Below are positions 1 to 12,575 of a stretch of DNA of 12,575 nucleotides, piece after piece. How positions within the stretch are numbered: position 1 is the first letter of the stretch; every line of letters starts with the position of its first letter. Source of the DNA: a virus (Duplodnaviria > Heunggongvirae > Uroviricota > Caudoviricetes); the IMG/VR virus record IMGVR_UViG_2698536677_000006, positions 1 to 12,575 of that record, one strand, 5' to 3'. A program made the translations under genes and the position numbers. The notes beneath the pieces are model-generated. The model saw only the letters and a program-made list of their open reading frames with translations. It was not told the origin of the DNA and did not search any database.

Positions 1-185
1 TCCGGCTCAGTTGCACCACTGACCACCACATCACCTTCTGCTGTAATCGCCTGCATCAGGGTATAAGGGGTTATGGCCACCGGACTACCAAACGGCTGCC
101 AGCCCTCTTTCAGTTTGTGTGTCAGCTTTTCCGCAAGGTCTGACGGCGACGCCGCCCTGACAACATCATAATGTTTAATCGACAT
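1..185 (-). CDS. Partial CDS (5' end only, continues past window start): small phage protein resembling the DUF1737-type proteins found just upstream of lysis genes in lambdoid prophages
   Basis: Hand translation of minus strand from ATG at 185..183 gives MSIKHYDVVRAASPSDLAEKLTHKLKEGWQPFGSPVAITPYTLMQAITAEGDVVVSGATEP with no stop before the window edge. GGGAGA Shine-Dalgarno about 8 nt upstream. Family call is from memory. Confidence 0.45.
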   Translation of the reverse strand, partial: MSIKHYDVVRAASPSDLAEKLTHKLKEGWQPFGSPVAITPYTLMQAITAEGDVVVSGATEP

Positions 186-271
186 CGAATTTCTCCCGTG
201 TACAGGAACAGAGTTAAAAAGCCGGAACCGGAATCAAATCACAGGATGGCCATCTGCCAGTGGCTGGTCGT

Positions 272-298
272 AAAAAAAAGGCCACGCCATGCGCAGCC
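272..298 (-). terminator. Candidate rho-independent terminator downstream of the TerB/peptide cassette
   Basis: Minus-strand RNA GGCUGCGC-AUG-GCGUGGCC (8-bp stem including two G-U pairs, 3-nt loop) followed directly by U8 (plus-strand A8 at 272-279). Confidence 0.4.
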
Positions 299-499
299 GG
301 AAATAAAGGGATAACGATGATAGTTTGAGAAAAACAGAAACAACACTTTTGTGGCAAAGCATGGTGCCGGGTGCCTCCCGGTGAATTCAGTATCAGCACC
401 TGAATCCGCGATTATCCCATATACCTGGTTGCTGATCGCCCCTCCGCACAGGGGGATTCACCATGCAGAAGTGTTTTTAATAAACAGCAAACAAAAAAA

Positions 500-667
500 T
501 CAAGCATTATGCAGGCTGTTTCTTTTTATCACCGGCCACAGCAATACCACAATGCCGCAGACCAGCACCCCATCCGCCAGCACCGACATGATTCTGCTGG
601 TGAAATCCACCATCACCACCAGAAACAGCAGGAGTGCAGCCACAGCCAGGCGCAGTTTTACCGTCAC
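500..667 (-). CDS. Small hydrophobic protein (55 aa, two predicted hydrophobic segments), translationally coupled to the upstream TerB gene
   Basis: Not in the ORF track (below 60 aa). Hand translation: VTVKLRLAVAALLLFLVVMVDFTSRIMSVLADGVLVCGIVVLLWPVIKRNSLHNA, stop TGA at 502..500. GTG start at 667..665 overlaps the TerB stop TGA (666..664) in a GTGA arrangement; GGAG lies 8 nt upstream. Confidence 0.3.
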   Translation of the reverse strand: MTVKLRLAVAALLLFLVVMVDFTSRIMSVLADGVLVCGIVVLLWPVIKRNSLHNA

Positions 668-1095
668 AGGTGATTCTCCAGACGAAGACCCAGAACACCG
701 GCAATCTCTTCCAGCACCTTGCGCTCTTCCGGCTCAATTTCGCCGTCTGCCTCCGCAATGGCCACCGCCACATCCAGCACATCTTCCGCTTCACGCGTAT
801 CGTGTTTCACATCCTCAATCTCGCGTAACGCGGCACGACGACCAATTTTAAAATTGGTATCCAGCTGACCGATAATGGTTGCGCTAATCGCATTAATTTC
901 CGAGGTAAACGCAGACAACGCAGGCTGATTACGTAAGACCTGTTCGATCTTCGCTTTCTCGGATGCCTCGCATTCACCATCTGCATAGGCCACCAGGTAT
1001 GCAGCGTTAATCACCGCCTGTGCCAGATCGCGTTTCTCAAACTTTTTAATTTCCGTTGCCGCTCTGCGGGCTTTTTTACCAAAAATACCAAACAT
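664..1095 (-). CDS. TerB-family (tellurite-resistance TerB-like) protein, about 143 aa
   Basis: ORF track 664..1167; likely real start is the internal ATG at 1095 (MFGIFGKK...) with AGGA 8 nt upstream. Two acidic helix motifs typical of TerB: AAYLVAYADGECEASEKAKIEQVL and VAVAIAEADGEIEPEERKVLEEIAGVLGL. Confidence 0.7.
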   Translation of the reverse strand: MFGIFGKKARRAATEIKKFEKRDLAQAVINAAYLVAYADGECEASEKAKIEQVLRNQPALSAFTSEINAISATIIGQLDTNFKIGRRAALREIEDVKHDTREAEDVLDVAVAIAEADGEIEPEERKVLEEIAGVLGLRLENHL

Positions 1096-1227
1096 CGTGA
1101 CGTTCCTTTGGGTGGGTGAGCCAACGCCCGGGAGCGATCTGCCCACAGAGAAAGTCACACTGACCACTCCGTAAGCTCACCCCCGAAAGGCTCTGTGGTT
1201 GATATGCGCCGGGCGTGGCGCAGATAC

Positions 1228-1251
1228 AAAAAAGGCCCGCCAAAGCGAGCC
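1228..1251 (-). terminator. Rho-independent terminator immediately 3' of the tRNA pair
   Basis: Minus-strand RNA GGCUCGC-UUUG-GCGGGCC (7-bp stem, one G-U pair) followed by U6 (plus A6 at 1228-1233). Confidence 0.5.
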
Positions 1252-1263
1252 TGGAAAATAAGT

Positions 1264-1340
1264 GTGGTGCGTTGTACTGGATTCGAACCAGTGACCGATT
1301 GCTTAGAAGGCAATTGCTCTGTCCGGCTGAGCTAACAACG
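1264..1340 (-). tRNA. tRNA-Arg (anticodon UCU), phage-type
   Basis: Reverse complement folds as a 77-nt cloverleaf: acceptor GCGTTGT/ACAACGC, D-arm GCTC-AGCCGGACA-GAGC, anticodon arm ATTGC-CTTCTAA-GCAAT (anticodon TCT), T-arm ACTGG-TTCGAAT-CCAGT, discriminator A, encoded CCA. Confidence 0.85.
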
Positions 1341-1421
1341 CAGAATACCGATAATGGACCGCCACCGGGGACTCCGAATCTCGCACAGGGTGACGTTCTT
1401 TCCTGATGAGCTAGTGGCGGT

Positions 1422-1497
1422 TGGTGGCTCTTGCTGGATTTGAACCAGCGACCTGGCGATTATGAGTCGCTCGCTCTCACCACTGAGCTAAAGGGCC
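1422..1497 (-). tRNA. tRNA with CAU anticodon, ileX-like (tRNA-Ile2, lysidine type) rather than elongator Met
   Basis: Reverse complement GGCCCTTTAGCTCAGTGGTGAGAGCGAGCGACTCATAATCGCCAGGTCGCTGGTTCAAATCCAGCAAGAGCCACCA: D-arm GCTC/GAGC, anticodon loop CTCATAA, T-loop TTCAAAT, encoded CCA. Strong resemblance to E. coli ileX as recalled. One C4:A69 mismatch in the acceptor stem. Confidence 0.75.
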
Positions 1498-1537
1498 GAT
1501 AACATAATGATAACGTTACAGAATAAATTCAGCAATA

Positions 1538-2596
1538 TCACTCTCTCTTTCTGATTAAATTCTGTACATCCCTTGCGGTCTGCTCAAAACGTTCAGCCTC
1601 CAGCTCGACACCAATTGCACGACGCCCCAGCGCCATCGCGGCTTTGACTGTCGAACCCGACCCCATGAAGAAATCTGCAACCAGGTCACCCGGACGACTG
1701 CTGGCGGTAATCATTTGCCGCAACATATCTGCCGGTTTTTCACAGGGATGTTTGCCCGGATAATACTGCACAGGCTTGTGCGTCCAGACATCCGTATAAG
1801 GAACGGCTGCCGATACGGAAAAATAACGCCGCAGTGATTTGTACTCTTCCAGCAGGCTGGCATACTGCCGGTTCAGCTCACTGTATGTGCTGACCAGTTG
1901 GTGATGTGGCTTTTCCAGTTCTCCCCGCTGATGTTTCTCTTCTGCCACCCGGGCAAACAGCACCTGAAGTTTTCTGTAATCATCCTCGTTCGGTAACTGC
2001 CACTGGCTGGCACTGAACCAGTGCGACACCATGTTTTTCTTTCCTGTGGCATCTGCAATCTGTTTTGCCGTTATCCCCAGGGCCGCGCGCGCATCACGAA
2101 AGTAAGAAATCAGCGGGGCCATCACATGCTGTTTCAGTGCACTGCCCTTCGCCGCATACCCGGCATCTTTCGGACGATACGGCCCCTGATAATGTTCCGC
2201 GAACAGAATGCGCTCTGTGGCGGGGAAATACGCCCTCAGGCTTTCCTTGTTGCATCCGTTCCAGCGTCCGGACGGCTTCGCCCAGATAATATGGTTCAGC
2301 ACACTGAAGCGTTCACGCATCATGATTTCGATATCAGATGCCAGGCGATGACCACAGAACAGGTAAAGACTTCCGGCAGGTTTCAGCACCCGCCAGAACT
2401 GCGCCAGACACTGGTCCAGCCACTTCAGGTAATCATCGTCGCCCTTCCACTGGTTATCCCAGCCCTCGGGCTTCACTTTAAAGTATGGCGGGTCTGTGAC
2501 TATCAGATCGACAGAGTTTTCCGGTAAGGTCTGGATAAATTCCAGGCAATCAGCGTTGATTAACTCACAACTGGATATTTTTACAGTATTAGCCAT
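1538..2596 (-). CDS. DNA N6-adenine (or N4-cytosine) methyltransferase, beta-class, orphan (no adjacent endonuclease)
   Basis: 352-aa ORF. Catalytic motif IV DPPY near the N-terminus (LIVTDPPYFKV) and SAM-binding motif I near the C-terminus (DLVADFFMGSGSTVKAA), the circularly permuted order typical of phage amino-methyltransferases. Confidence 0.85.
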   Translation of the reverse strand: MANTVKISSCELINADCLEFIQTLPENSVDLIVTDPPYFKVKPEGWDNQWKGDDDYLKWLDQCLAQFWRVLKPAGSLYLFCGHRLASDIEIMMRERFSVLNHIIWAKPSGRWNGCNKESLRAYFPATERILFAEHYQGPYRPKDAGYAAKGSALKQHVMAPLISYFRDARAALGITAKQIADATGKKNMVSHWFSASQWQLPNEDDYRKLQVLFARVAEEKHQRGELEKPHHQLVSTYSELNRQYASLLEEYKSLRRYFSVSAAVPYTDVWTHKPVQYYPGKHPCEKPADMLRQMITASSRPGDLVADFFMGSGSTVKAAMALGRRAIGVELEAERFEQTARDVQNLIRKRE

Positions 2597-2734
2597 AGAT
2601 CAATAAGCACTTCTCTGATAGGCTCATACCGCTTTTGCGCAAAGCAGATGGGCCTGAGGTTTGCTTGTGACCACAACGCATGAGCAGATGGCTGGTGAGT
2701 GCCCCTAACACCCACCAGCCGCCCATTACCACAA

Positions 2735-2760
2735 ATAAAAAAGCCTTCACTGAGGAAGGC
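2735..2760 (-). terminator. Terminator copy in the methylase leader (copy A); the upstream gene is missing because of the N gap
   Basis: Same hairpin as at 3222..3247 and 6207..6232: GCCTTC-ACTGAG-GAAGGC followed on the minus strand by a U-run. Confidence 0.4.
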
Positions 2761-2780
2761 GTCTGTAACAACCGAACTGA

Positions 2781-2791
2781 NNNNNNNNNNN
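2781..2791. other. Run of 11 N: scaffold gap or assembly join
   Basis: Literal n characters. Sequence on each side belongs to different copies of the same repeated module (2597-2780 matches 6069-6252; 2792-3083 matches 2305-2596). Confidence 0.95.
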
Positions 2792-3083
2792 TGAAGCGTT
2801 CACGCATCATGATTTCGATATCAGATGCCAGGCGATGACCACAGAACAGGTAAAGACTTCCGACAGGTTTCAGCACCCGCCAGAACTGCGCCAGACACTG
2901 GTCCAGCCACTTCAGGTAATCATCGTCGCCCTTCCACTGGTTATCCCAGCCCTCAGGCTTCACTTTAAAGTACGGCGGGTCCGTGACTATCAGGTCAACA
3001 GAATTTTCGGGTAACGACCGGATAAATTCCAGGCAGTCGGCGTTGATTAACTCACAACTGGATATTTTTACAGTATTAAGCAT
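2792..3083 (-). pseudogene. 5' fragment of a second, diverged copy of the adenine methyltransferase gene, truncated by the N gap
   Basis: ORF track 2589..3083 begins MLNTVKISSCELINADCLEFIRSLPENSVDLIVTDPPYFKV and runs into XXXX; it differs from the 1538..2596 copy at A2L, QT to RS and A to V. The part of the ORF below 2781 is out-of-frame read-through, not gene. Confidence 0.6.
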
Positions 3084-3221
3084 GGATCATTAAGCCTGTC
3101 TCTGATAGGCTCATTCTGCTTTTGCGCAAAGCAGTGGGCCTGAGGTGTGCTTGTGAACCCAACGCATGAGCAGATGGCTGGTGGGTGCCCCTAACACCCA
3201 CCAGCCGCCCATTTACCACAA

Positions 3222-3247
3222 ATAAAAAAGCCTTCACTGCGGAAGGC
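3222..3247 (-). terminator. Rho-independent terminator overlapping the 3' end of the small CDS 3234..3431
   Basis: Minus-strand RNA GCCUUC-CGCAGU-GAAGGC followed by U6-7 (plus A-run 3222-3229). The stop codon of the small CDS lies in the hairpin loop. Confidence 0.5.
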
Positions 3248-3431
3248 GTCTGTAACAACCGAACTGATAGTCTGCCAGACCCGCCATAACCAGCTGGGTC
3301 AGTATTAACTGGCAGCGTTCGCGTGAAAGGTAAGTATTCTGCGCAATCTCCCCGACTGTCGCCGGGTCGTTAACGCTTAATTCATTAAACACCACTCTGG
3401 CGGTTTCTGTCATATCCTGCTGTTTTAGCAT
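3234..3431 (-). CDS. Small conserved protein (65 aa), first ORF downstream of the Q-position gene; function unknown
   Basis: Internal ATG of ORF 3234..3518 (MLKQQDMTETARVVFNELSVNDPATVGEIAQNTYLSRERCQLILTQLVMAGLADYQFGCYRRLPQ). The same protein with only three substitutions is encoded at 6219..6416 although the two DNA copies differ, which favours real coding. Confidence 0.45.
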   Translation of the reverse strand: MLKQQDMTETARVVFNELSVNDPATVGEIAQNTYLSRERCQLILTQLVMAGLADYQFGCYRRLPQ

Positions 3432-3553
3432 GTCTTTTTCCCTTTTCCGGTTAACGTGACACACCAATAACTCTTGTCGAAAAAGCCAGCAAGCTGAAAG
3501 ACAGGTATTCACCGCCACCAGCGCGTTTACTGTACTGACGCGATTTCAGTCAT

Positions 3554-3575
3554 AAAAAACCCGCCAGGCGGCGGG
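3554..3575 (-). terminator. tR'-like intrinsic terminator downstream of the Q gene
   Basis: Minus-strand RNA CCCGCC-GCCU-GGCGGG (6-bp GC stem) followed by U6 (plus A6 at 3554-3559), about 80-100 nt after the Q stop, as expected for the lambda PR'/tR' arrangement. Confidence 0.5.
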
Positions 3576-3657
3576 GTGTAAAAAATCTTCTAACGTCAGG
3601 CATAAAACGCCCATCGTTAGAGCAAATTTACCACAGATTCGGGAAAAATCAACAACA

Positions 3658-4479
3658 CTATCGCGTTACCCTCTTTAACTGCCGCTCCGCCCATGCCTCT
3701 TCAATGTCAAACCGAACCACCAACGTATCGTAAAAGCGTTTCACTGATTTTTTCCACGTATCAAGCGTGATAGCACTCGTCACTTTGCATATGGCATTAA
3801 ATGCCTCCGTTGATGGCAGCCTTTCACAGCCACGACCACCACAACGCTGGCAATCTCTGATAACAGGCATACCACGTTTTACCGACTCTTCACGATGAAT
3901 GGCGACACCACGCCCACGGCAATCCTTACAGGCGGTGGAAACCTCACCCTTTCCGCCACACTCCGGACAGGCAACTTTTACCACCTCCCTGACTTTTTTC
4001 CATTCTTCCCAGTAAGACGGATACACGCCTTTTGTGCACTTTGCCCACACTGGTGGCTTACCATCCGGATACTGGATCTTGTTTGTAAAAACCTCGCTTT
4101 CAATAAATTTTTTTCCGTGACAGCAGGGGCACTGTTTTTTGCTCGCCGCGCTACGGGCATAATCTTCAAACGCATACGAAGCCATAATGCGCATCACTAC
4201 CGGTTTTATTTCTGCCGGAAGTTTTCTCAACGCCGCCACACGATCGCACCGACTGAGTGCATAATCTGCCAGTAATTCTGTTGCCCGCGCCCTGTCATTC
4301 ATACTGATGCCCATTTTCCCCAGGAACGCAGAAAACCCCATCTCAGCCCGATTCTGTGTCATGCCCTGCGCGGCCATCACATCAGTGATACTCAGCGCAT
4401 CTTTTGACGTTGAGGCCGATGCATCGGTCAGGCCAGGGGATTTTGGGGAGTAGTATTTCGGTAAATCTTCCAGTTTCAT
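3658..4479 (-). CDS. Late-gene antiterminator Q, lambda-Q family, with an expanded cysteine-rich domain
   Basis: 273 aa. Recalled lambda Q matches at the N-terminus (KYYSPKSP vs KFHSPKSP; TDVMAA) and C-terminus (FYDTLVV vs LYDALVV; ends VTR). Four CxxCxGxG repeats (CPCCHGKK, CPECGGKG, CKDCRGRG, CQRCGGRG). ATG overlaps the RusA stop (ATGA). Confidence 0.8.
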   Translation of the reverse strand: MKLEDLPKYYSPKSPGLTDASASTSKDALSITDVMAAQGMTQNRAEMGFSAFLGKMGISMNDRARATELLADYALSRCDRVAALRKLPAEIKPVVMRIMASYAFEDYARSAASKKQCPCCHGKKFIESEVFTNKIQYPDGKPPVWAKCTKGVYPSYWEEWKKVREVVKVACPECGGKGEVSTACKDCRGRGVAIHREESVKRGMPVIRDCQRCGGRGCERLPSTEAFNAICKVTSAITLDTWKKSVKRFYDTLVVRFDIEEAWAERQLKRVTR

Positions 4480-4856
4480 TTTTTGACCTGCTCTTCATGC
4501 ATTATGGGGTAAATCTTCACCCCCATACGTCCACCAGATACTGGCTGACCACGAACGATATTGATTTCATCAAACTGCTCATCGTCCATTAACACTCCCG
4601 CATGCGTCAGCGCATCCAGCGGTGCTTTCAGGATATTGTCCAGGTCGCGACGACGCTTATCCGGTGGCTCTGCAATCACCTTTATCGCCAGCCTTCCGGA
4701 CAGGATTAATTTCAGCCGCTGCTGGCGAACAATAAGCGCCACAGCCCGGCGATAACGCTTTCCCTCCTCCGAGATAAAATATGTGCTGCCACGGCGTCGC
4801 CAGTAAGTGTTCACCGTTGGCGGGTAAGGCAAAACAAATTCTATGCGTTCAGTCAT
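4476..4856 (-). CDS. rusA: RusA-family Holliday junction resolvase
   Basis: 126 aa. Catalytic spacing D-x-D-x3-K ... D as in RusA (RRRDLDNILKAPLD ... LMDDEQ). Directly abuts the upstream YdfU-like stop (TAAATG) and overlaps the Q start. Confidence 0.85.
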   Translation of the reverse strand: MTERIEFVLPYPPTVNTYWRRRGSTYFISEEGKRYRRAVALIVRQQRLKLILSGRLAIKVIAEPPDKRRRDLDNILKAPLDALTHAGVLMDDEQFDEINIVRGQPVSGGRMGVKIYPIMHEEQVKK

Positions 4857-5912
4857 TTATGCTTTCCACTTCAGAACACCCGAATTTCTCGCGTGCATTA
4901 AAAAACGAATCAGCAACAACAGCTGGCTGCCGTGTTTTTCTTCAAAATCTTTTACCCCGGCGTGTAGTTCGCTATGGCATTTACGGCACAGCGGAATAAC
5001 AAACAAATCATCAGCCTTTGTTCCCATCCCTCCCAGTCCATGACCAATGATGTGATGCGGATCATCTGCCTGATTGCCACACGTCATGCATTTCTGCGTT
5101 TTTACCCAACGCGTGTATACAGGCATCTCTTCCCGTTGTGATTTCTGGCGCTGGAGATACTGAGCCGGTGACTCCGGATCAACGGCAATGCTGACCACCG
5201 TCTTTTCCTGTGGCGGGTTTTGCTGGTGGGCGTGAGGCAGCGGCGCAAGATTTTTTGTGCGCTGCTTCAGTATGCTGGTGGCGGTCTGCTCTCCCGGTAC
5301 GATGTCGCTTTCACGGTACATTGAGCGGATTTTTTCCGCACGCAACCCCAGCGAACGACGTAATACCGCTTCCGGTAGCGCGTCCGCCACCTGATTGCGG
5401 ACCGCCCACCAGGATAATTCAGCCAGCGATAATTCCCGTTCCTGCGAGCCATTCATTGCATGGCGTATGACGTCAATCATCCATGCAGACAGGTTTTGGT
5501 GAGCAAGTTGCCCGAGTGATTCGGAGGTCTGGTCGCGCAGCTGGTTGTCGCAGTGCCAGCACAACACCATTGCGCCGGTACCATAACGGTGAATGACGGT
5601 TTCACTGTGGTGATAATCGCCGTGTGGCCACTGGCAGGATTTAACATGGCGCAGTAACCAGTCAGACAATGCGCCAGCGCCACCAGCAGCACGAATCACT
5701 CGTTCGTCGCTGAAAAATGGCAGTAATGATTTATCCTCCGCCAGCGGCTGGCGAACGGCAGGAACGACCCCGGACGGCAGATTACGCATGCTTTTCGGTT
5801 CCGGCTCCACCAGTACCCGGGTATTGTGGAATACCGGCATGGATTCACGGCCCGGCTTAACGATCACCAGCCCGAGTTCCGGTACCAGAACAGGTCGAAG
5901 TAATACCCGCAC
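4857..5912 (-). CDS. YdfU-like (DUF968) prophage protein with C-terminal HNH-like zinc motif
   Basis: Homologous to the 7572..8621 copy; GTG start at 5912..5910 preceded by GGAGG. C-terminal CxxC ... HH ... C..C..H..LH motif (CMTCGNQADDPHHIIGHG ... CRKCHSELH). The ORF-track extension to 6068 is a chimera across the n at 5957. Confidence 0.7.
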   Translation of the reverse strand: MRVLLRPVLVPELGLVIVKPGRESMPVFHNTRVLVEPEPKSMRNLPSGVVPAVRQPLAEDKSLLPFFSDERVIRAAGGAGALSDWLLRHVKSCQWPHGDYHHSETVIHRYGTGAMVLCWHCDNQLRDQTSESLGQLAHQNLSAWMIDVIRHAMNGSQERELSLAELSWWAVRNQVADALPEAVLRRSLGLRAEKIRSMYRESDIVPGEQTATSILKQRTKNLAPLPHAHQQNPPQEKTVVSIAVDPESPAQYLQRQKSQREEMPVYTRWVKTQKCMTCGNQADDPHHIIGHGLGGMGTKADDLFVIPLCRKCHSELHAGVKDFEEKHGSQLLLLIRFLMHARNSGVLKWKA

Positions 5913-5956
5913 GTTACCTCCAGATGCGTTGCTGGAATGTGCGGGACGGACGCGGT

Positions 5957-6068
5957 NTGGCGGGTCTGTGACTATCAGATCGACAGAGTTTTCCGGTAAG
6001 GTCTGGATAAATTCCAGGCAATCAGCGTTGATTAACTCACAACTGGATATTTTTACAGTATTAGCCAT
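5957..6068 (-). pseudogene. Orphaned 5' end (37 codons) of the adenine methyltransferase gene, joined through a single n to the YdfU-like leader
   Basis: Encodes MANTVKISSCELINADCLEFIQTLPENSVDLIVTDPP, identical to the start of the 1538..2596 gene. 5958-6068 matches 2486-2596. The join falls at a shared GGCGGG microhomology. Confidence 0.55.
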
Positions 6069-6206
6069 AGATCAATAAGCACTTCTCTGATAGGCTCATA
6101 CCGCTTTTGCGCAAAGCAGATGGGCCTGAGGTTTGCTTGTGACCCCAACGCATGAGCAGATGGCTGGCAGGTGCCGCTAACACCCACCAGCCGCCCATTA
6201 CCACAA

Positions 6207-6232
6207 ATAAAAAAGCCTTCACTGAGGAAGGC
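6207..6232 (-). terminator. Rho-independent terminator overlapping the 3' end of the small CDS 6219..6416
   Basis: GCCTTC-ACTGAG-GAAGGC hairpin plus A-run on the plus strand (U-run on the minus transcript). Confidence 0.5.
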
Positions 6233-6416
6233 GTCTGTAACAACCGAACTGATAATCTGCCAGACCCGCCATAACAAGCTGGGTCAGTATTAACTGGCAG
6301 CGTTCGCGTGAAAGATAAGTGTTCTGCGCAATTTCCTCGACGGTCGCCGGTTCGGTGACGCTTAATTCATTAAACACCACTCTGGCGGTTTCGGTCATAT
6401 CCTGCTGTTTTAGCAT
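6219..6416 (-). CDS. Small conserved protein (65 aa), second copy
   Basis: Internal ATG of ORF 6219..6539. Identical to the 3234..3431 product except ND to TE and G to E. Confidence 0.45.
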   Translation of the reverse strand: MLKQQDMTETARVVFNELSVTEPATVEEIAQNTYLSRERCQLILTQLVMAGLADYQFGCYRRLPQ

Positions 6417-6539
6417 GCCTTTTTCCCTTTTCCGGTTAACGTGACACACCAATAACTCTTGTCGAAAAAGCCAGCAAGCTGAAAGAACGGTATTAATAAC
6501 CACCAGCGAATTTATTGCGCTGCTGTATATTACGGACAC

Positions 6540-6561
6540 AAAAAAACCACCTTCCGGTGGC
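6540..6561 (-). terminator. tR'-like intrinsic terminator downstream of the Q-position gene (second module)
   Basis: Minus-strand RNA CCACC-GGAA-GGUGG followed by U8 (plus A8 at 6540-6547), about 80 nt below the stop of the 6640..7203 gene. Confidence 0.5.
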
Positions 6562-6639
6562 TTCCTTGTGCGAAAAAACTTGCATTTCGCCTCGCGATAC
6601 AGCTTTGCGAAGCTTATACGGATTGAAGCAGTTTATTGA

Positions 6640-7203
6640 TCAGTTTGCAACATTTTTCTCTGTAACAAAAGCCATGCGCATGGGGGCATATAACATAAAT
6701 TCAGATACCCCCAACCATTGATCAATTCGGCGTCTGCACGTAACCAACGACCAATCAGGATGATCTGCATTTAACCTTTCGGCCATTTTCAGTTTGCTCA
6801 TTCCCCGTCCTTCGTACCTTTGCCGGAGAACATTGATTAGCCCGGGATATTCCCCAAGCACCTCACTGATAACGCGATCAATAATCAACGCCTCTGTGTC
6901 TGTACAATGTGACAACCAGCTCTTCTGCTTTCCTCTTGTCATATCCCGAAAAAATGCCTCAAGTTCCGGTTTTTCCAGCCCGGATTTCTTCATTCTGCGT
7001 AAAACCTCATTAACTGCTGTTTTCGTCAGCTTTTTCGAAACCAGTAACCGGTTAAACATATTTCCGGATTTACCCCCACCGATATACGACCACCGCCCCC
7101 ACATCCGTAATTTCCCCTGGATCCAGACTGCTTCCAGCGTGTTCAGGCGTAAATGTTCGCCGCTTTTGCCTGTAATTTCCGGATATATCATATTTACGCT
7201 CAC
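6640..7203 (-). CDS. Q-position protein of a different sequence family (putative alternative late antiterminator)
   Basis: 187-aa ORF in the same slot as the lambda-type Q of the other module: start (GTG 7203, or ATG 7191) overlaps the RusA stop, and a tR'-like terminator follows. No sequence similarity to the 3658..4479 protein. Function inferred from position only. Confidence 0.45.
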   Translation of the reverse strand: MSVNMIYPEITGKSGEHLRLNTLEAVWIQGKLRMWGRWSYIGGGKSGNMFNRLLVSKKLTKTAVNEVLRRMKKSGLEKPELEAFFRDMTRGKQKSWLSHCTDTEALIIDRVISEVLGEYPGLINVLRQRYEGRGMSKLKMAERLNADHPDWSLVTCRRRIDQWLGVSEFMLYAPMRMAFVTEKNVAN

Positions 7204-7559
7204 TCACTCTCAATTTTGTAAATCTTCACACCCAGCCGTCCACCAGATACTGGCTGACCACGTACAATATTGATTTCATCAAACTGCTCGTCATCAATGA
7301 GCACTCCCGCATGCGTCAGCGCATCCAGCGGTGCTTTCAGAATGTTGTCCAGGTCGCGACGACGCTTATCCGGTGGCTCTGCAATCACCTTTATCGCCAG
7401 CCTTCCGGACAGGCTTAATTTCAGCCGCTGCTGGCGAACAATAAGCGCCACAGCCCGGCGATAACGCTCACCGGCTTTTGATACAAAATATGTGCTGCCA
7501 CGACGTCGCCAGTAGGTGTTCACCGTCGGCGGGTAAGGCAAAACAAACTCTATGAGCAT
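7200..7559 (-). CDS. rusA: RusA-family Holliday junction resolvase (second copy)
   Basis: 119 aa, near-identical to the 4476..4856 product; same DLDN...K...D motif. Confidence 0.85.
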   Translation of the reverse strand: MLIEFVLPYPPTVNTYWRRRGSTYFVSKAGERYRRAVALIVRQQRLKLSLSGRLAIKVIAEPPDKRRRDLDNILKAPLDALTHAGVLIDDEQFDEINIVRGQPVSGGRLGVKIYKIESE

Positions 7560-7571
7560 CAGTCACCTCTT

Positions 7572-8621
7572 TTACCCGAGCACGCCAGTCGCAAAGGCGT
7601 GATCAAGAAAACGAAAAATTAAATCAACCTGGGAACCATGCTTTTCTTCGAACGCCAGCGGATCCGCATGAAGCTCGTTGTGATGCTCCCGACACAGCGG
7701 TAGCGTGAAAATATCGTGGGATTTTGTTCCCATTCCACCCTGACCATGACCAATCAGATGATGAGGATCGTCCGCTGGCTTACCACAACACGCACACGGC
7801 TGTGTCTTTACCCAGCGTGTGTATTTCTCATTTACCCAGCGGCGACGTTTAGGTCGTTTCATGAAGGATTCCGGAGACTCCGGATCAACGGCAATGCTGA
7901 CCACCGTCTTTTCCTGTGGTGGGTTCTGTTGCTGGTGGGTGTGAGGCGGTAGCGCAATATTTTTTGTGCGCTGCTTCAGTATGCTGGTGGCGGTCTGTTC
8001 TCCCGGTATGATGTCGCTTTCACGGTATACGGAGCGGATTTTTTCCGCCGGTAATCCCAGAGAACGACGCGCTACTGCCTCAGGTAGTGCATCCACCACC
8101 TGATTGCAGGCCGCCCACCAGGATAATTCGGCCAGCGATAACTCCCTCTCCTGCGTACCGCTTATTGCGTGACCGATGACGTCAATCATCCATGCTGACA
8201 GGTTTTGATGAGCAAGTTGCTCGAGTGATTCGGATGTCTGGTCACGCAGCTGGTTGTCACAGTGCCAGCACAACACCATCGCGCCGGTACCGTAACGGTG
8301 AATGACTGTTTCGCTGTGATGATAATCGCCGTGTGGCCACTGGCAGGATTTCACGTGACGTAATAACCAGTCAGACAGTGCACCTGCACCACCTGCTGCA
8401 CGAATTACCCGCTCATCGCTGAAAAATGGTAGTAATGTTTTATCCTCAGCCAACGGCTGGCTAACGGCTGCAACGACGCCGGACGGAAGACTGCGCATGT
8501 TTTTGGGTTCCGGTTCCACCAATATTCTGCCGTTATGGAATACTGACATTGATTCACGGCCTGGCTTAACGATAACCAGACTGAGTTCCGGTACCAGAAC
8601 AGGTCGAAGTAATACCCGCAC
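7572..8621 (-). CDS. YdfU-like (DUF968) prophage protein with C-terminal HNH-like zinc motif
   Basis: 349 aa. GTG start at 8621..8619 with GGAGG 5 nt upstream, which overlaps the stop of the upstream small gene. C-terminus CACCGKPADDPHHLIGHGQGG ... CREHHNELH. Confidence 0.75.
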   Translation of the reverse strand: MRVLLRPVLVPELSLVIVKPGRESMSVFHNGRILVEPEPKNMRSLPSGVVAAVSQPLAEDKTLLPFFSDERVIRAAGGAGALSDWLLRHVKSCQWPHGDYHHSETVIHRYGTGAMVLCWHCDNQLRDQTSESLEQLAHQNLSAWMIDVIGHAISGTQERELSLAELSWWAACNQVVDALPEAVARRSLGLPAEKIRSVYRESDIIPGEQTATSILKQRTKNIALPPHTHQQQNPPQEKTVVSIAVDPESPESFMKRPKRRRWVNEKYTRWVKTQPCACCGKPADDPHHLIGHGQGGMGTKSHDIFTLPLCREHHNELHADPLAFEEKHGSQVDLIFRFLDHAFATGVLG

Positions 8622-8622
8622 G

Positions 8623-8895
8623 TTACCTCCAGATGCGTTGCTGATATGTGCGGGACGGACGCGGCGGGCGTTCGGAATAAGGGAGCCTGACGGAAATTAT
8701 CCAGTGTCGGAAGTCAGGATTGAGGCCTTTCTGAAACTGGTATCCACGTCTGCGGTAATTCTGAATCAGCCACTCGGCCTGTTCTTCAGTGCATTGGTCA
8801 TGCTGGTACCAGTCATATTTGAATGCGTGAGAGCGCCGTCCGTGTCTGCTGGCAGGGTCGGCATCAGAATTGTGGTGTTTGGTATTGTGCGCCAT
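8623..8895 (-). CDS. Small prophage protein (about 90 aa), function unknown
   Basis: Internal ATG (MAHNTKHH...) of ORF 8623..8976. The longer ORF-track start would run through the terminator at 8968-8993, so the internal start is preferred. Stop TAA lies 1 nt before the YdfU-like GTG. Confidence 0.4.
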   Translation of the reverse strand: MAHNTKHHNSDADPASRHGRRSHAFKYDWYQHDQCTEEQAEWLIQNYRRRGYQFQKGLNPDFRHWIISVRLPYSERPPRPSRTYQQRIWR

Positions 8896-8967
8896 CGGTT
8901 GTCTCTGCTGGCGCAGCAGGTGCCAGTTGTTCAGGCTGGCGTGTGGATTGTAAACCAGAATGCCAGG

Positions 8968-8993
8968 AAAAAACAAAACCCGCGAAGCGGGTT
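8968..8993 (-). terminator. Strong rho-independent terminator separating the restriction-modification island from the nin-region genes
   Basis: Minus-strand RNA AACCCGC-UUCG-GCGGGUU (7-bp stem, UUCG tetraloop) followed by UUGUUUUUU, about 75 nt downstream of the endonuclease stop. Confidence 0.65.
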
Positions 8994-9065
8994 AGTAAAA
9001 ATGTACTGAAGTCAATGACGTGCCATCACAGTTAAAATATGACAGACTCTATTTACGTAGAGATG

Positions 9066-9944
9066 TCAGACTGCAAGATCCAAGGGAAGATCAGAAATAT
9101 CCTTTAATCTTTTACCATTAACCATCACGGAAAGCATGTCAGCTGCATCGCTGAGCCCCAGTATTTCAACTGCTGATATAAGTTCATAAAGCGCAAAATG
9201 ATACACGCAATCTATATCACCAGTACCAAGAGCAATAGACGCCAGACGACTTGGAGTAGGCTCAGCAGTAACAACCATTACATGAGGGAGATTTCCCTTA
9301 CGGTTGCGAATAAGATTTAATGCCTCAGAACGAGCATTCTGGGCCCGGTCGCTTCTTATTGTCCATTTGCAGGAAATACTTGCGTGTAATATTGGTTTCC
9401 CACCATTCGAACTCCTGAGAGCTGACATGCGGGTAACAGAATCATCCACCAGTAATTCAGGACTGTTGATAACTTGATCACATTCAGGTTCTCTTTCAAC
9501 AATAATATCTGGTGAAATCGTATAATCACTCCCCAGTGCAGCAGCTAGCTGAGGATTACTTTTTGCAGCACTATCCAATGCTATAAGATGGGCATATTGT
9601 TCATATTTAGCTATCTCTAATCTGTTTCTACCAGAAACCTGATGTACATTCCATTTTCCAGGGCGTAAGTGGCTGAGTTTAAAAAAGGTTTTTTCTATAA
9701 ACTCTGCGCAGATACTCTCAAACTGATTACCAGATGTTTGCCCTGCAACACGTTCACCAATCGTTTCAGCCTGCAAGAAGCGAGCAATTTCTCTTGCTAT
9801 AGCTTTACTGTTTTTGTTACTGCTATCTGCGTTACTAACAACTCCGGCAGTATTAATTGTGAGCGTATTCAGTAACAATTGGGCATGAAACTCCTTTCTG
9901 GCTTCAGCAAAACCAACTATGCTGTCAACCAAATCTCCATTCAT
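9066..9944 (-). CDS. Type II restriction endonuclease, NgoMIV/Cfr10I/Bse634I-like (predicted CCGG-core specificity)
   Basis: 292 aa from ATG 9944 (MNGDLV...), with AGGAAA Shine-Dalgarno and only 13 nt after the methyltransferase stop. Active-site pattern SPD(146) ... SCK(193) ... E(207): D-to-K 47 and K-to-E 14 residues, the spacing recalled for NgoMIV D140/K187/E201. Recognition-type motif K-x3-R-x-D-R (KWTIRSDR). Confidence 0.6.
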   Translation of the reverse strand: MNGDLVDSIVGFAEARKEFHAQLLLNTLTINTAGVVSNADSSNKNSKAIAREIARFLQAETIGERVAGQTSGNQFESICAEFIEKTFFKLSHLRPGKWNVHQVSGRNRLEIAKYEQYAHLIALDSAAKSNPQLAAALGSDYTISPDIIVEREPECDQVINSPELLVDDSVTRMSALRSSNGGKPILHASISCKWTIRSDRAQNARSEALNLIRNRKGNLPHVMVVTAEPTPSRLASIALGTGDIDCVYHFALYELISAVEILGLSDAADMLSVMVNGKRLKDISDLPLDLAV

Positions 9945-9957
9945 TTCTGGATTTCCT

Positions 9958-11082
9958 TCAGGCTGCTTGACTATTCTTACTGATGTTATTCTTATACCGT
10001 CCCTGCAAAACTCCATACACATATTGTGCGATTTTTGCCGCAAATAGCGGTGGAACAGCATTCCCGATCTGCTTTGCAATCTCAGTTTTTGAACCGGTAA
10101 AAATGAAATTATCAGGAAAAGACATTAATCTCGCTGCCTCACGATGAGTTATTGGCCGATCCTCTTCCGGATGTAAATATCGCCCTTTCTCCGGTTTGAA
10201 AAACTCAGTACGAATCGTTACTGAAGGTTTGTCCCACCACAGACGTCCAAACAAATCGGTCCCTCCAGATTTCTTTTTTAGCCAGCACGCCGGGGTTATA
10301 TCAGGTCTTTTTTTCTGTAAATCGAAACGGTTACCTCCTGGTGGAACCGCTTTATATCGCTCCAGAGAAACAGGAGTGGGATTACGCCCAAAATGTAAGT
10401 TCAGCGGAGGAAGTTCATTACGAATATCAGTTCCAACAGGAGCAGGTAAGTCACCAATTGCATCACGCGTACAGACCCATTCAGGCAAAGCGACATCCTT
10501 ATCAGGGGAACGATGCGTTGGTGCTGGCGGGAACGCCGGAATACTATGCACATCGAAGAGTTCTCGTTTGATACCGATTGCTATCGTTCGTTTTCTTGTC
10601 TGAGGTACTCCATAGTCAGCAGTATTCAACACCATTGGATTAAGCAGAATAAAGCCCATGGATTTCGCTCTAAACGTAATGTCCGCAAACTCATCGCTTA
10701 TCAGCAATCCGGGGACATTTTCCATGACGAACATACAAGCCCTTGAACGCTCAATGACATCCATATAAGGCTCCCACAATGCTCTTCGGTGATCACCATA
10801 ACGATTCTTATTCAATAAACTGAATCCCTGACACGGGGGGCCACCTATGACCACATCAGCCTCAGGAACAGTATTGCTGGATGCCCACTCCTCAATATTT
10901 GCCTGAACTCCATGCAAACCAAAATTGGCATTGTAGGTATTTATAGCTGCAGCATTATTATCAATAGCAAGGATACTTTCAAAGTAGTCAGACATCTCTC
11001 CATGAAGAAAACCATAAGATAATCCACCTGCCCCACAAAAGAGGTCTATCACTCTGAATTTATTTAATTCTTTCATCCGCAT
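9958..11082 (-). CDS. DNA cytosine-5 methyltransferase (Type II restriction-modification methylase)
   Basis: 374 aa with the canonical m5C motifs in order: I DLFCGAGGLSYGF, IV GGPPCQGFS, VI ENVPGL, VIII QTRKR, X GNAVPP. GAGG Shine-Dalgarno before the start. Confidence 0.9.
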   Translation of the reverse strand: MRMKELNKFRVIDLFCGAGGLSYGFLHGEMSDYFESILAIDNNAAAINTYNANFGLHGVQANIEEWASSNTVPEADVVIGGPPCQGFSLLNKNRYGDHRRALWEPYMDVIERSRACMFVMENVPGLLISDEFADITFRAKSMGFILLNPMVLNTADYGVPQTRKRTIAIGIKRELFDVHSIPAFPPAPTHRSPDKDVALPEWVCTRDAIGDLPAPVGTDIRNELPPLNLHFGRNPTPVSLERYKAVPPGGNRFDLQKKRPDITPACWLKKKSGGTDLFGRLWWDKPSVTIRTEFFKPEKGRYLHPEEDRPITHREAARLMSFPDNFIFTGSKTEIAKQIGNAVPPLFAAKIAQYVYGVLQGRYKNNISKNSQAA

Positions 11083-11165
11083 CCATATGCCTCAGATTAA
11101 TGTTGAGCGTCTTACAGGACGCGTAATGTTAACTGGGGCTTTCTCTATCTGCCTTTTGGTGTTCA

Positions 11166-11190
11166 TGCCTGAGGCAGACAGCCTCAGGCA
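11166..11190. promoter_or_regulatory. Perfect 9-bp inverted repeat (TGCCTGAGG-n7-CCTCAGGCA) upstream of the methyltransferase gene; candidate operator or RNA hairpin
   Basis: Read directly from the sequence. The arm sequence TGCCTCAG recurs at 11094-11101, overlapping the methyltransferase ribosome-binding site. Confidence 0.3.
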
Positions 11191-11260
11191 CCCGCAGCAA
11201 TTCTACTTAACTCACGTCACCTCGCCAATATGAAATCAATCAGAAAGGTGATCCATAAAA

Positions 11261-11947
11261 TCACTCCTTCTCTTCTTTTCCGTAGTGGAGTTGGCCAATT
11301 TTGATAAGAGGGCGTCCCTGAGATTTGCGGTGTAGATTGGTATCGCGCAGAGAATACACACAGCCACAATATTCCTGCTGATAGAATTTTTCGCGCTTGC
11401 TGATTTCAATCATACGGGACGAGCCGCCCTGCTTGCGCCAGTTATAATCCCAGTACACCATACCCGGATAATGCGCAACAGCTCGCCGCCCACACTCGTT
11501 AACCTGCTGCATATTTTTCCAGCGTGAAATGCCCAGTGAACTACTGATCACACTGAAACCATTTTCAGCAGCGTACAACGCTGTCCGCTCAAAACGCATG
11601 TCAAAACACATGGTACAACGGATCCCCCTCTCAGGCTCCCATTCCATTCCTTTGGCACGTTCAAACCAGTTGTCGGTGTCGTAATCAGCATCGATAAACG
11701 GCACGCCGTGTTGTTCAGCAAAGCGAATATTTTCATCCTTACGAATTAAATACTCTTTCTGAGGATGAATGTTCGGGTTGTAGAAAAAGATGGTGTAGTC
11801 GATTCCCGAGGCCTGAAGCGCCTCCATCACTTCACCGGAACATGGAGCACAGCAAGAGTGCAGTAGTAGTTTGTTTGCCCCGTTTGGAAGCTCCAATTTA
11901 GGCCGTTTGAAATCAGCAATAGTCATAAATATTTTTATTGGGGTCAT
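11261..11947 (-). CDS. DUF208 / QueH-like protein (putative cobalamin-independent epoxyqueuosine reductase homolog)
   Basis: 228-aa ORF with the N-terminal [11 protein letters not shown] signature recalled for QueH/DUF208 and further conserved Cys residues (CTMCFD, YCGC). Start may be ATG 11947 or 11926; neither has a clear Shine-Dalgarno. Confidence 0.5.
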
Positions 11948-12100
11948 GAAAATAGCACAGAGTGTAGCATCAGAGCAGGGCTATCGGGAATATATGTCTA
12001 AATCTGGTAATATCTGGTTTTGACGCAAAGCGGACAACCACGCTGGCTCTACCCTGCGCCATGAAAATGTCAATTCACATCTGAACTAATGCTCTTTAAT

Positions 12101-12526
12101 CTAGTAACGTCTAAAATATCTAACATTTCCTTGATAAAATGCCAGTACACGCTGCATAGCTTCGCTCTTCCGGCACTCGCGACAGATTATATTCAGGCGC
12201 CTGTCGTAGCGGCGTATTTCGCCGTCTGGTAACGACCAGATAAGGTCCGGATCAACCACTGCAGGTTTCTTCACCTTTGCCCTTGAGAGTTTTTTGCGAG
12301 CATTTTGCCAGTCCTTACGCGCCTGTTCAGACGGGAATAACCCGTAACCAGAGTTGTATACATCGCCACTGGCAACCAGCTCTCTGGCGAGAACACTCAT
12401 CAGATATCTTGTCGCACCTGTCCTGGCTTCCAGTTGCCGCAACGTCTCGCGACCGCTCAGACGTACAAGTTCAACAACCTGCCCTTTAATTTTTTCCCGC
12501 TCTTCTTGTGTAAATACTTTTGCCAT
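12101..12526 (-). CDS. Hypothetical basic protein (141 aa), possible DNA-binding protein
   Basis: ORF 12101..12541; the first ATG at 12526 (MAKVFTQEEREK...) has GGAGG 5 nt upstream, whereas the ORF-track start is a TTG. Lys/Arg-rich centre (ARKKLSRAKVKKP) and a single CRECRK. No family recognised. Confidence 0.5.
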   Translation of the reverse strand: MAKVFTQEEREKIKGQVVELVRLSGRETLRQLEARTGATRYLMSVLARELVASGDVYNSGYGLFPSEQARKDWQNARKKLSRAKVKKPAVVDPDLIWSLPDGEIRRYDRRLNIICRECRKSEAMQRVLAFYQGNVRYFRRY

Positions 12527-12575
12527 AAGCGCCTCCGGCAATCACTTTTCCGATACAACACGGCGGGAAGAATCA

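Follow-up and report, generated by a model that had tools for sequence, protein, structure and literature searches.

What does a TerB-family gene do in the prophage slot that can hold the Shiga toxin genes, and is it expressed there on its own? The question is raised by a 12,575-nucleotide (nt) stretch of DNA from a tailed virus of the Caudoviricetes (IMG/VR record IMGVR_UViG_2698536677_000006, positions 1 to 12,575; hereafter the window), in which an earlier note had described, at 664–1095, a minimal and stand-alone TerB-domain gene, suggested to be independently expressed between its own terminators and not belonging to a system that could be named. The gene is tciA, the first of a pair, tciA-tciB, which is a named and widely annotated family already; the part of the locus worth specialist attention is the RNA leader that precedes tciA and the family to which this leader belongs. 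As an overall explanation we favor, at slightly less than an even chance, that tciA-tciB is a TerB/TciB module associated with the membrane, transcribed late and gated at the level of translation, which acts on behalf of the phage and occupies the stx-equivalent slot of a lambdoid prophage. The three elements that carry the argument, read from 5′ to 3′ on the minus strand, are as follows.

1096–1221, minus strand: structured 5′ leader of tciA (fold, covariation, covariance model R1)
664–1095, minus strand: tciA, encoding a TerB-family protein of 143 amino acids (Pfam, match to 2JXU, AlphaFold2, phrog_632)
500–667, minus strand: tciB, encoding a 55-amino-acid DUF3927 protein with two hydrophobic helices (Pfam PF13064, phrog_1470)

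The leader of tciA and its relatives

The 137 nt that separate the tciA ATG from the upstream T-run were G+C-rich and were predicted to fold with a minimum free energy of −55.3 kcal/mol (z −2.6). The leader, of about 125 nt, comprises hairpin P0 (1206–1221); a long-range helix A that joins a 5′ flank at 1191–1198 (CCACAGAG) to an apical region at 1143–1150 (CUCUGUGG); helix B, formed by 1172–1190 with 1105–1124; and helix C, formed by 1162–1170 with 1131–1139. The start codon lies 8 nt downstream of the Shine-Dalgarno sequence AAAGGA (1104–1109), and helix B base-pairs CCUUU (1186–1190) to AAAGG of that sequence. Helices A and B cross, corresponding either to a pseudoknot or to alternative states.

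Conservation of the leader extends across genera. It stands ahead of both the window-type and the P1/Klebsiella-type alleles of tciA, whose proteins are just 41% identical, and is retained in Erwinia jumbo phages. A coding function was ruled out by insertions and deletions that are not multiples of three. Covariation was assessed in an alignment of 29 non-redundant sequences (A4), using as control the same structure with its 3′ partners slid by 1–3 columns. Paired cells amounted to 91.7% for this structure versus 38–52% for the slid versions, pairs changed on both sides numbered 13 versus 3–6, and the observed covariation score was reached by none of 500 shuffles. Complementarity of helix A was kept through at least 11 different sequence pairs, including CCGUAGAG/CUCUACGG in jumbo phages, CGCAGAG/CUCUGCG, CCACCGAG/CUCGGUGG and CGAUAA/UUAUCG; because helix A is not part of the covariance model, this test was not biased by it. 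On the sense strand, G·U exceeded A·C (78 versus 42, and 63 versus 22), indicating an RNA rather than a DNA structure. Searches of Rfam 15 gave no match at 1096–1221 of the minus strand up to an E-value of 10. Taken from sequence comparison, these traits point to an uncatalogued folded RNA that would hide the ribosome-binding site of tciA, and this is the new part of the locus.

Leaders that sequester a Shine-Dalgarno sequence are familiar from the rpoS mRNA, the lambda N mRNA and the early RNase III sites of T7. The tciA leader is like them in its long imperfect hairpin, which base-pairs the ribosome-binding site and would need an opening event; it is unlike them in having no sequence relation to any, in adding a covarying long-range helix, and in being shared by several unrelated phage genes. 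An RNA thermometer of the fourU or ROSE type was considered and rejected on the strength of predicted folding: in five members the predicted probability of the Shine-Dalgarno sequence being unpaired was 0.16–0.42 and rose little between 20 and 50 °C, and, because it stays near 0.2 over that range, with no predicted melting, a thermometer is unlikely.

Covariance model R1 also detected sibling copies of the leader, which the same prophages carry some 4.3 kb further downstream, past the lysis cassette. Each sibling lies directly after a terminator and directly before another accessory gene, and the genes that follow encode antirepressor-like products (annotated Ant in phage phi-O153), a periplasmic binding protein, a KilA-N protein and products without assigned function. 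The copies recorded with model R1 are given by locus and position.

L031, 9319–9473: sibling leader copy
L069, 9563–9714: sibling leader copy
L179, 1344–1501: sibling leader copy
L002, 10197–10353: sibling leader copy
L205, 3727–3852: sibling leader copy
L097, 9439–9567: sibling leader copy

One sibling type occurs in 291 phage records, among them 933W (AF125520, 26747–26852), VT2-Sakai (26215–26320) and phi24B, in which it is unannotated, and no family of Rfam 15 matched the sibling copies at its gathering score. In the extended family, 22 of 34 pairs showed double changes, versus 6–10 when slid; the alignment behind these counts contains 30 forward-strand members and two partial reverse-strand matches and, being fitted to the model, leans towards structure.

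The leader lies at module junctions and precedes unrelated genes, the breakpoint between Stx and tciA phages falls inside P0, and an IS110-family element is inserted in the leader of some prophages, all of which favors a recombination linker, a boundary for the swapping of accessory genes, in place of a regulatory RNA. Yet compensatory changes keep the base pairs in diverged sequences, G·U exceeds A·C two- to three-fold on the sense strand and the Shine-Dalgarno sequence is always within the basal helix, so that we consider a mere linker improbable; the linker and regulatory roles are not mutually exclusive.

Some variation in the presence of the leader was also observed. In the PPompW prophage records LC567818 and LC567822 and their relatives only its first 43 nt (the P0 region) match, and the IS110-family element ISEc20 is annotated under or at the leader match, an apparent insertion inside the leader. 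Loci L055, L062 and L067 have a full leader copy about 2.5–4 kb upstream of the tciA match. P1 (L094, 1430–1465) and Pectobacterium prophages (L106, L107) lack the leader upstream of tciA and have instead a CACCGGGA(A/G)GCACCCGGCACC-like hairpin, which resembles the 3′ hairpin (window 360–391) of the STnc100-type small RNA (sRNA) found downstream of tciB.

TciA, TciB and the distribution of the pair

TciA is a full-length TerB-fold protein. Its residues 26–138 matched the Pfam TerB profile PF05099 (E 2.4e-16, 60.5 bits against a cut-off of 24.4), which bears out the family membership proposed earlier, and residues 14–137 matched the solved TerB of K. pneumoniae (2JXU, E 4e-8). Its 143 residues nearly equal the 153 of the 2JXU chain and the match covers most of both proteins, so that the term minimal, used in the earlier note, does not apply. 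An AlphaFold2 model based on 29 homologues had seven helices, with a predicted local distance difference test (pLDDT) of 86 and a predicted template-modelling score of 0.80; its closest folds in the PDB, according to Foldseek, were the TerB-like 2H5N (probability 1.00, template-modelling score 0.54–0.62) and 2OU3. Across 13 diverse phage TciA proteins D23, D39/G40, E46, D95, D117 and E124 are conserved, and two repeated acidic D-G..E motifs (D39/G40/E46 and D117/G118/E124) are invariant or nearly so; their residues are presumed to bind metal. TciA thus shares with the TerB of terZABCDEF operons (2JXU) its family, a similar length, an alignment over most of both proteins and the acidic motifs. 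It differs in its setting, with no other ter gene nearby (the neighbors are tRNA genes, tciB, the sRNA gene and an esterase gene) and with a partner, TciB, that is not found in ter operons; the homologues are located in phages and prophages rather than in ter operons. A second, divergent TerB-like open reading frame (ORF; PF05099, E 9e-5) was observed about 0.8 kb downstream of tciAB in a Pantoea prophage (L102, 7203–7616).

The GTG start of tciB overlaps the stop codon of tciA by 4 nt (GTGA). TciB matched DUF3927 (PF13064, E 4e-17), with D21, F22, S24 and D32 nearly invariant, and is predicted to be a two-helix membrane peptide. A narrower TciA profile search on species genomes yielded 14 species loci, which include Pantoea, Pseudescherichia, Franconibacter, Serratia, Pectobacterium, Dryocola and an Aeromonadaceae metagenome-assembled genome; in all 14 a tciB encoding 49–58 amino acids begins between −4 and +3 nt relative to the stop codon of tciA. 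Among close viral contigs, tciB comes directly after tciA in 76 of 80. The gene taken to stand alone is therefore coupled to a partner, and natural TciA-TciB fusions were also found (P0007 and P0066). Phage 434 (L004, 2612–3599) and some E. coli prophages (L093, 4053–4169) carry tciB without tciA; in phage 434, tciB follows a gene for a putative membrane protein of 248 amino acids, within the same interval from Q to the esterase gene.

The names tciA, tciB and tciC reportedly go back to the annotation of phage P1 by Lobocka et al. in 2004. P1 and P7 carry the three genes, and the system that had seemed to lack a name is the tciA/tciB of P1, equivalent to phrog_632 (TciA) and phrog_1470 (TciB) in PHROGs, in the category 'moron, auxiliary metabolic gene and host takeover'. 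Copies 100% identical to those of the window are labelled 'tellurite resistance TerB family protein' and 'DUF3927 family protein' in RefSeq, and an allele of TciA 98.6% identical is annotated tciA in phage JLK-2012. The locus of P1 is alike in having a TerB-type protein followed by a DUF3927 two-helix peptide, and in being phage-borne, tRNA-flanked and non-essential, the last of these in P1, where tciA, tciB and tciC were non-essential in a CRISPR interference screen. It is unlike in sequence (TciA is 41–52% identical to the P1/P7 alleles; P1 TciA match, E 1e-22 to 6e-38), in location (the P1 ban region versus a lambdoid late operon), in having tciC, and in having no structured leader that could be found. 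No credible tblastn match to P1 TciC was obtained in window 1–1300, where the sRNA fills the space. A match to the P1 C1 operator, which would show early, repressor-controlled expression, was sought upstream of P1 tciA and not found at up to 3 mismatches. The tciABC operon has been described as a variable region among P1-like phage-plasmids.

Of 5426 complete E. coli genomes, 1145 contained the window allele, the carriers having a median of 4 copies and up to 10, and relatives were found in 131 phage records and in 956 plasmid records, the latter mostly non-mobilizable replicons, many of about 90–130 kb, the size of phage-plasmids. Gene order in JLK-2012 is Q, three tRNAs, tciA, tciB, yjhS, S, R, Rz, and the order Q, tciAB, holin/lysozyme recurs in Pantoea, Pseudescherichia, Franconibacter and Klebsiella prophages with two different Q families. 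The pair is also found in the N4-like phage Pollock, among early/middle genes, and in Erwinia jumbo phages. The N4-like and jumbo phages, as well as the Pseudomonas and Vibrio phages that have a TerB gene only, are lytic; the occurrence of the pair in lytic N4-like and jumbo phages argues that the module benefits the phage in infection and does not only protect lysogens. Association with tRNA genes is conspicuous in P1, JLK-2012, the window and ChrisDB, and 64 of 80 E. coli-type contigs have tRNAs within 1.5 kb upstream. A general link between tciAB and phage tRNAs was rejected, with any tRNA within 6 kb in just 2 of the 14 species loci, and the association is treated as lineage history.

The stx slot and transcription of the locus

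The remaining features of window 1–1700 are listed in the direction of transcription.

1422–1497, minus strand: tRNA with CAT anticodon, of ileZ type (tRNA-Met(CAT) by ARAGORN; tRNA-Ile, ileZ, in matching RefSeq and Stx-phage records)
1265–1341, minus strand: tRNA-Arg(TCT) (ARAGORN; Rfam tRNA, 71 bits)
1223–1252, minus strand: intrinsic-terminator-like hairpin (1233–1252) with a T-run to 1223, ending the tRNA block; backbone, not cassette
323–495, minus strand: STnc100-family (PasD-related) sRNA gene (Rfam RF02076)
272–298, minus strand: hairpin (280–298) followed by U8 (T-run to 272) (hairpin/T-run scan and folding)
1–173, minus strand: 5′ end of a DUF1737/SASA esterase gene (NanS-p-like), running off the window (Pfam DUF1737, E 3e-16; annotated neighbors)

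Stx2 phages matched the window at 1217–2700, which includes a methylase gene, both tRNAs and the upstream hairpin, and at 28–178 in the esterase gene, as well as at 360–391 and 436–484 inside the sRNA, downstream of stx2B. In these phages stx2A-stx2B takes the place of approximately 485–1216, and in Stx2a_1447 the shared stretch stops 43 nt before stx2A. This alignment bears out the earlier placement of the gene as prophage cargo between the Q/tRNA genes and the lysis genes, and the slot of tciAB is the stx slot. The two cassettes are alike in position, each being flanked on one side by the ileZ/arg tRNA block and its terminator and on the other by the STnc100 sRNA and NanS-p genes, and in their expected expression from pR′ through Q. 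They are unlike in encoding unrelated proteins and in that stx2A starts 43 nt after the shared stretch, without a long leader.

Both hairpins of the earlier note were recovered, each consisting of 8 base pairs (6 G-C), with folding energies of −14.6 kcal/mol (z −2.3) upstream and −12.8 kcal/mol (z −1.8) downstream. Two hairpin and T-run sites per 1.7 kb are at chance level, since shuffled sequence gave 1.8 ± 1.3, so these sites are meaningful by position and not by number. Neither seems to belong to the cassette in the sense proposed. The upstream hairpin falls within the tRNA backbone that Stx phages also possess, and stands ahead of stx2A as well; the downstream hairpin is separated from the pair by the sRNA gene. 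Region 323–495 scored 104.7 bits against STnc100 (RF02076; gathering score 47) and, in adjoining the sialate esterase gene and following the cargo of the stx slot, has the position reported for STnc100/PasD prophage sRNAs (Zhu, Shabalina & Storz 2026 preprint); it is a neighbor of tciAB rather than the finding itself. Since in Stx2 phages a distance of 75 nt downstream of stx2 has been reported for STnc100, the backbone also takes in the sRNA and, probably, the 280–298 terminator. Pas/STnc100-type sRNAs are described to finish in a stem-loop and poly-U, and the 280–298 hairpin is probably the terminator of the sRNA itself, at which a tciAB transcript made without antitermination would end as well. 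A sRNA of this family also follows tciAB, or another cargo gene, in the related loci L031, L069, L179 and L205. Opening of the leader by pairing with the STnc100-like sRNA was rejected as a candidate: in 26 of 300 shuffles the duplex energy was at least as good, and a duplex energy computed for such long sequences is not meaningful.

A strict consensus scan of the minus strand of 1–1700 detected no sigma-70 promoter-like site, and the interval between the upstream terminator and tciA is filled by the G+C-rich folded leader. What had been read as an independently expressed cassette thus has, in place of a promoter-like site, a leader that sequesters its Shine-Dalgarno sequence. Transcription of stx2 proceeds from pR′ via Q antitermination and, by analogy, that of tciAB most likely does the same.

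The window looks like a scaffold in which pieces of several similar prophages were strung together. Two runs of N break its sequence, at 2781–2791 and 5957; 1538–8621 contains three tandem partial copies of a DUF968-RusA-Q-small ORF-methylase module, joined within the methylase gene; and two types of Q are present (PF03589 at 3658–4479 and DUF1133 at 6640–7203). As a scaffold of several prophages, it does not allow the native Q that drives tciAB to be read from it. Further along, a type II restriction-modification pair was observed (9066–11082, minus strand) within the early/nin-like portion of the prophage, in which a gene for an NgoMIV-family endonuclease (E 1e-126) overlaps that for a C-5 cytosine methyltransferase. 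It is adjoined by a gene for epoxyqueuosine reductase QueH (11261–11947, minus strand, E 1e-65), which also adjoins a DUF977 prophage gene and represents a tRNA-modification gene within a prophage that also bears tRNA genes.

Role of the tciA-tciB module

According to the explanation that we favor, tciAB would form an operon without a promoter of its own, which Q-modified RNA polymerase coming from pR′ would reach, as for stx2, by reading through the terminator of the tRNA block; we give this step somewhat better than even chances. That the leader gates translation of tciA and, through coupling, that of tciB, we put at even chances. Candidates for the opening of helix B would be RNase III, acting on a helix of about 26 bp as it does on the lambda N leader, a factor acting in trans, or a switch to helix A. 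More tentatively, TciB may anchor TciA to the inner membrane on its cytoplasmic side, where the module could condition or guard the envelope for the phage during lytic growth. TerB has been placed at the membrane in published work, and an envelope role would match the kind of phenotype known for the ter operon, which confers resistance to pore-forming colicins and other phages. The homologues in N4-like and jumbo phages and the dispensability in P1 are consistent with a role for the phage.

Several observations weigh against this explanation. Helices A and B have no linker between their 5′ strands and may not coexist; the leader sequences stem from few independent lineages, and the pattern used to collect them fixed some columns; and the strict consensus promoter scan leaves a weak or non-sigma-70 promoter possible. 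Concerning the proteins, a contact between TciA and TciB was sought in a single-sequence AlphaFold2 model of fusion P0007, which was uninformative (pLDDT 42). The partnership is broken in both directions: tciB occurs without tciA in phages 434 and 2B8, TerB occurs without tciB in Pseudomonas PMBT3, and TerB occurs alone in Pseudomonas and Vibrio phages. Lastly, the literature on tciA, tciB and DUF3927 gave annotation-level mentions only and no functional tests of TciA or TciB.

Among other roles for the proteins, the one that survives best is protection of the lysogen, whose own TciA and TciB would stop incoming phages at the membrane, as defence or superinfection exclusion. The cargo slot is a suitable position for this, TerB domains are present in the Shango and Bunzi systems, for which a role in membrane surveillance has been proposed, the ter operon inhibits phages, and tciABC is variable in P1-like phage-plasmids. 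The pair is nonetheless found in lytic N4-like and jumbo phages as well, and not in host defence islands; in the window no promoter was detected and the Shine-Dalgarno sequence is sequestered; and identity with Shango, Bunzi or another defence system was rejected, with PADLOC giving nothing beyond a 14-bit match to PDC-S48 and with helicase or ATPase partner genes absent nearby. We thus regard this role as unlikely, if less so than those that follow. A free phage TerB might also act against defence, as a decoy that titrates partners of host systems containing TerB (the ter operon, Shango, Bunzi). Such a decoy would fit carriers both temperate and lytic, hosts that often have ter operons, and an alignment that takes in most of TciA and most of canonical TerB (2JXU), but it rests on analogy only and leaves the obligate TciB partner unexplained, which makes it distinctly unlikely. 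Poorer still are the prospects of a lysis-timing accessory, with TciB as a small holin- or antiholin-like membrane peptide regulated by TciA: the location directly upstream of the lysis cassette in lambdoid phages and the two helices with conserved intramembrane Asp residues would suit it, but in P1, N4-like and jumbo phages tciAB lies away from the lysis genes, separate holins are present, and tciAB is dispensable in P1. The literal annotation, host resistance to tellurite or metals, is hardly credible despite the TerB family and conserved acidic residues of a presumed metal-binding type, since resistance by the R478 ter operon requires several ter genes, and terZ, A, C, D, E and F are absent from the window and related loci.

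Beyond the favored module in the stx slot, a broader and more speculative proposal is that the leader founds an undescribed class of pseudoknotted cis-regulatory RNAs, which would gate, by one common signal, late-operon accessory genes (tciA, Ant-type, KilA-N and binding-protein genes) of lambdoid phages, including 933W and VT2-Sakai, and of Erwinia jumbo phages, with TciA/TciB being a phage-benefit membrane guard or an anti-TerB decoy and not a resistance gene. The locus matters because tciAB is very common and fills the Shiga toxin slot in many pathogenic strains, while its function has been a homology-based guess since 2004. A coupled pair of TerB protein and membrane peptide that is also present in lytic phages would shift attention from 'tellurite resistance' or 'host defence' to a role in the infected cell. 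The leader would offer a testable handle on the post-transcriptional control of cargo in a Q-antiterminated late operon, by an element of a type that stands unannotated in the best-studied Stx phages.

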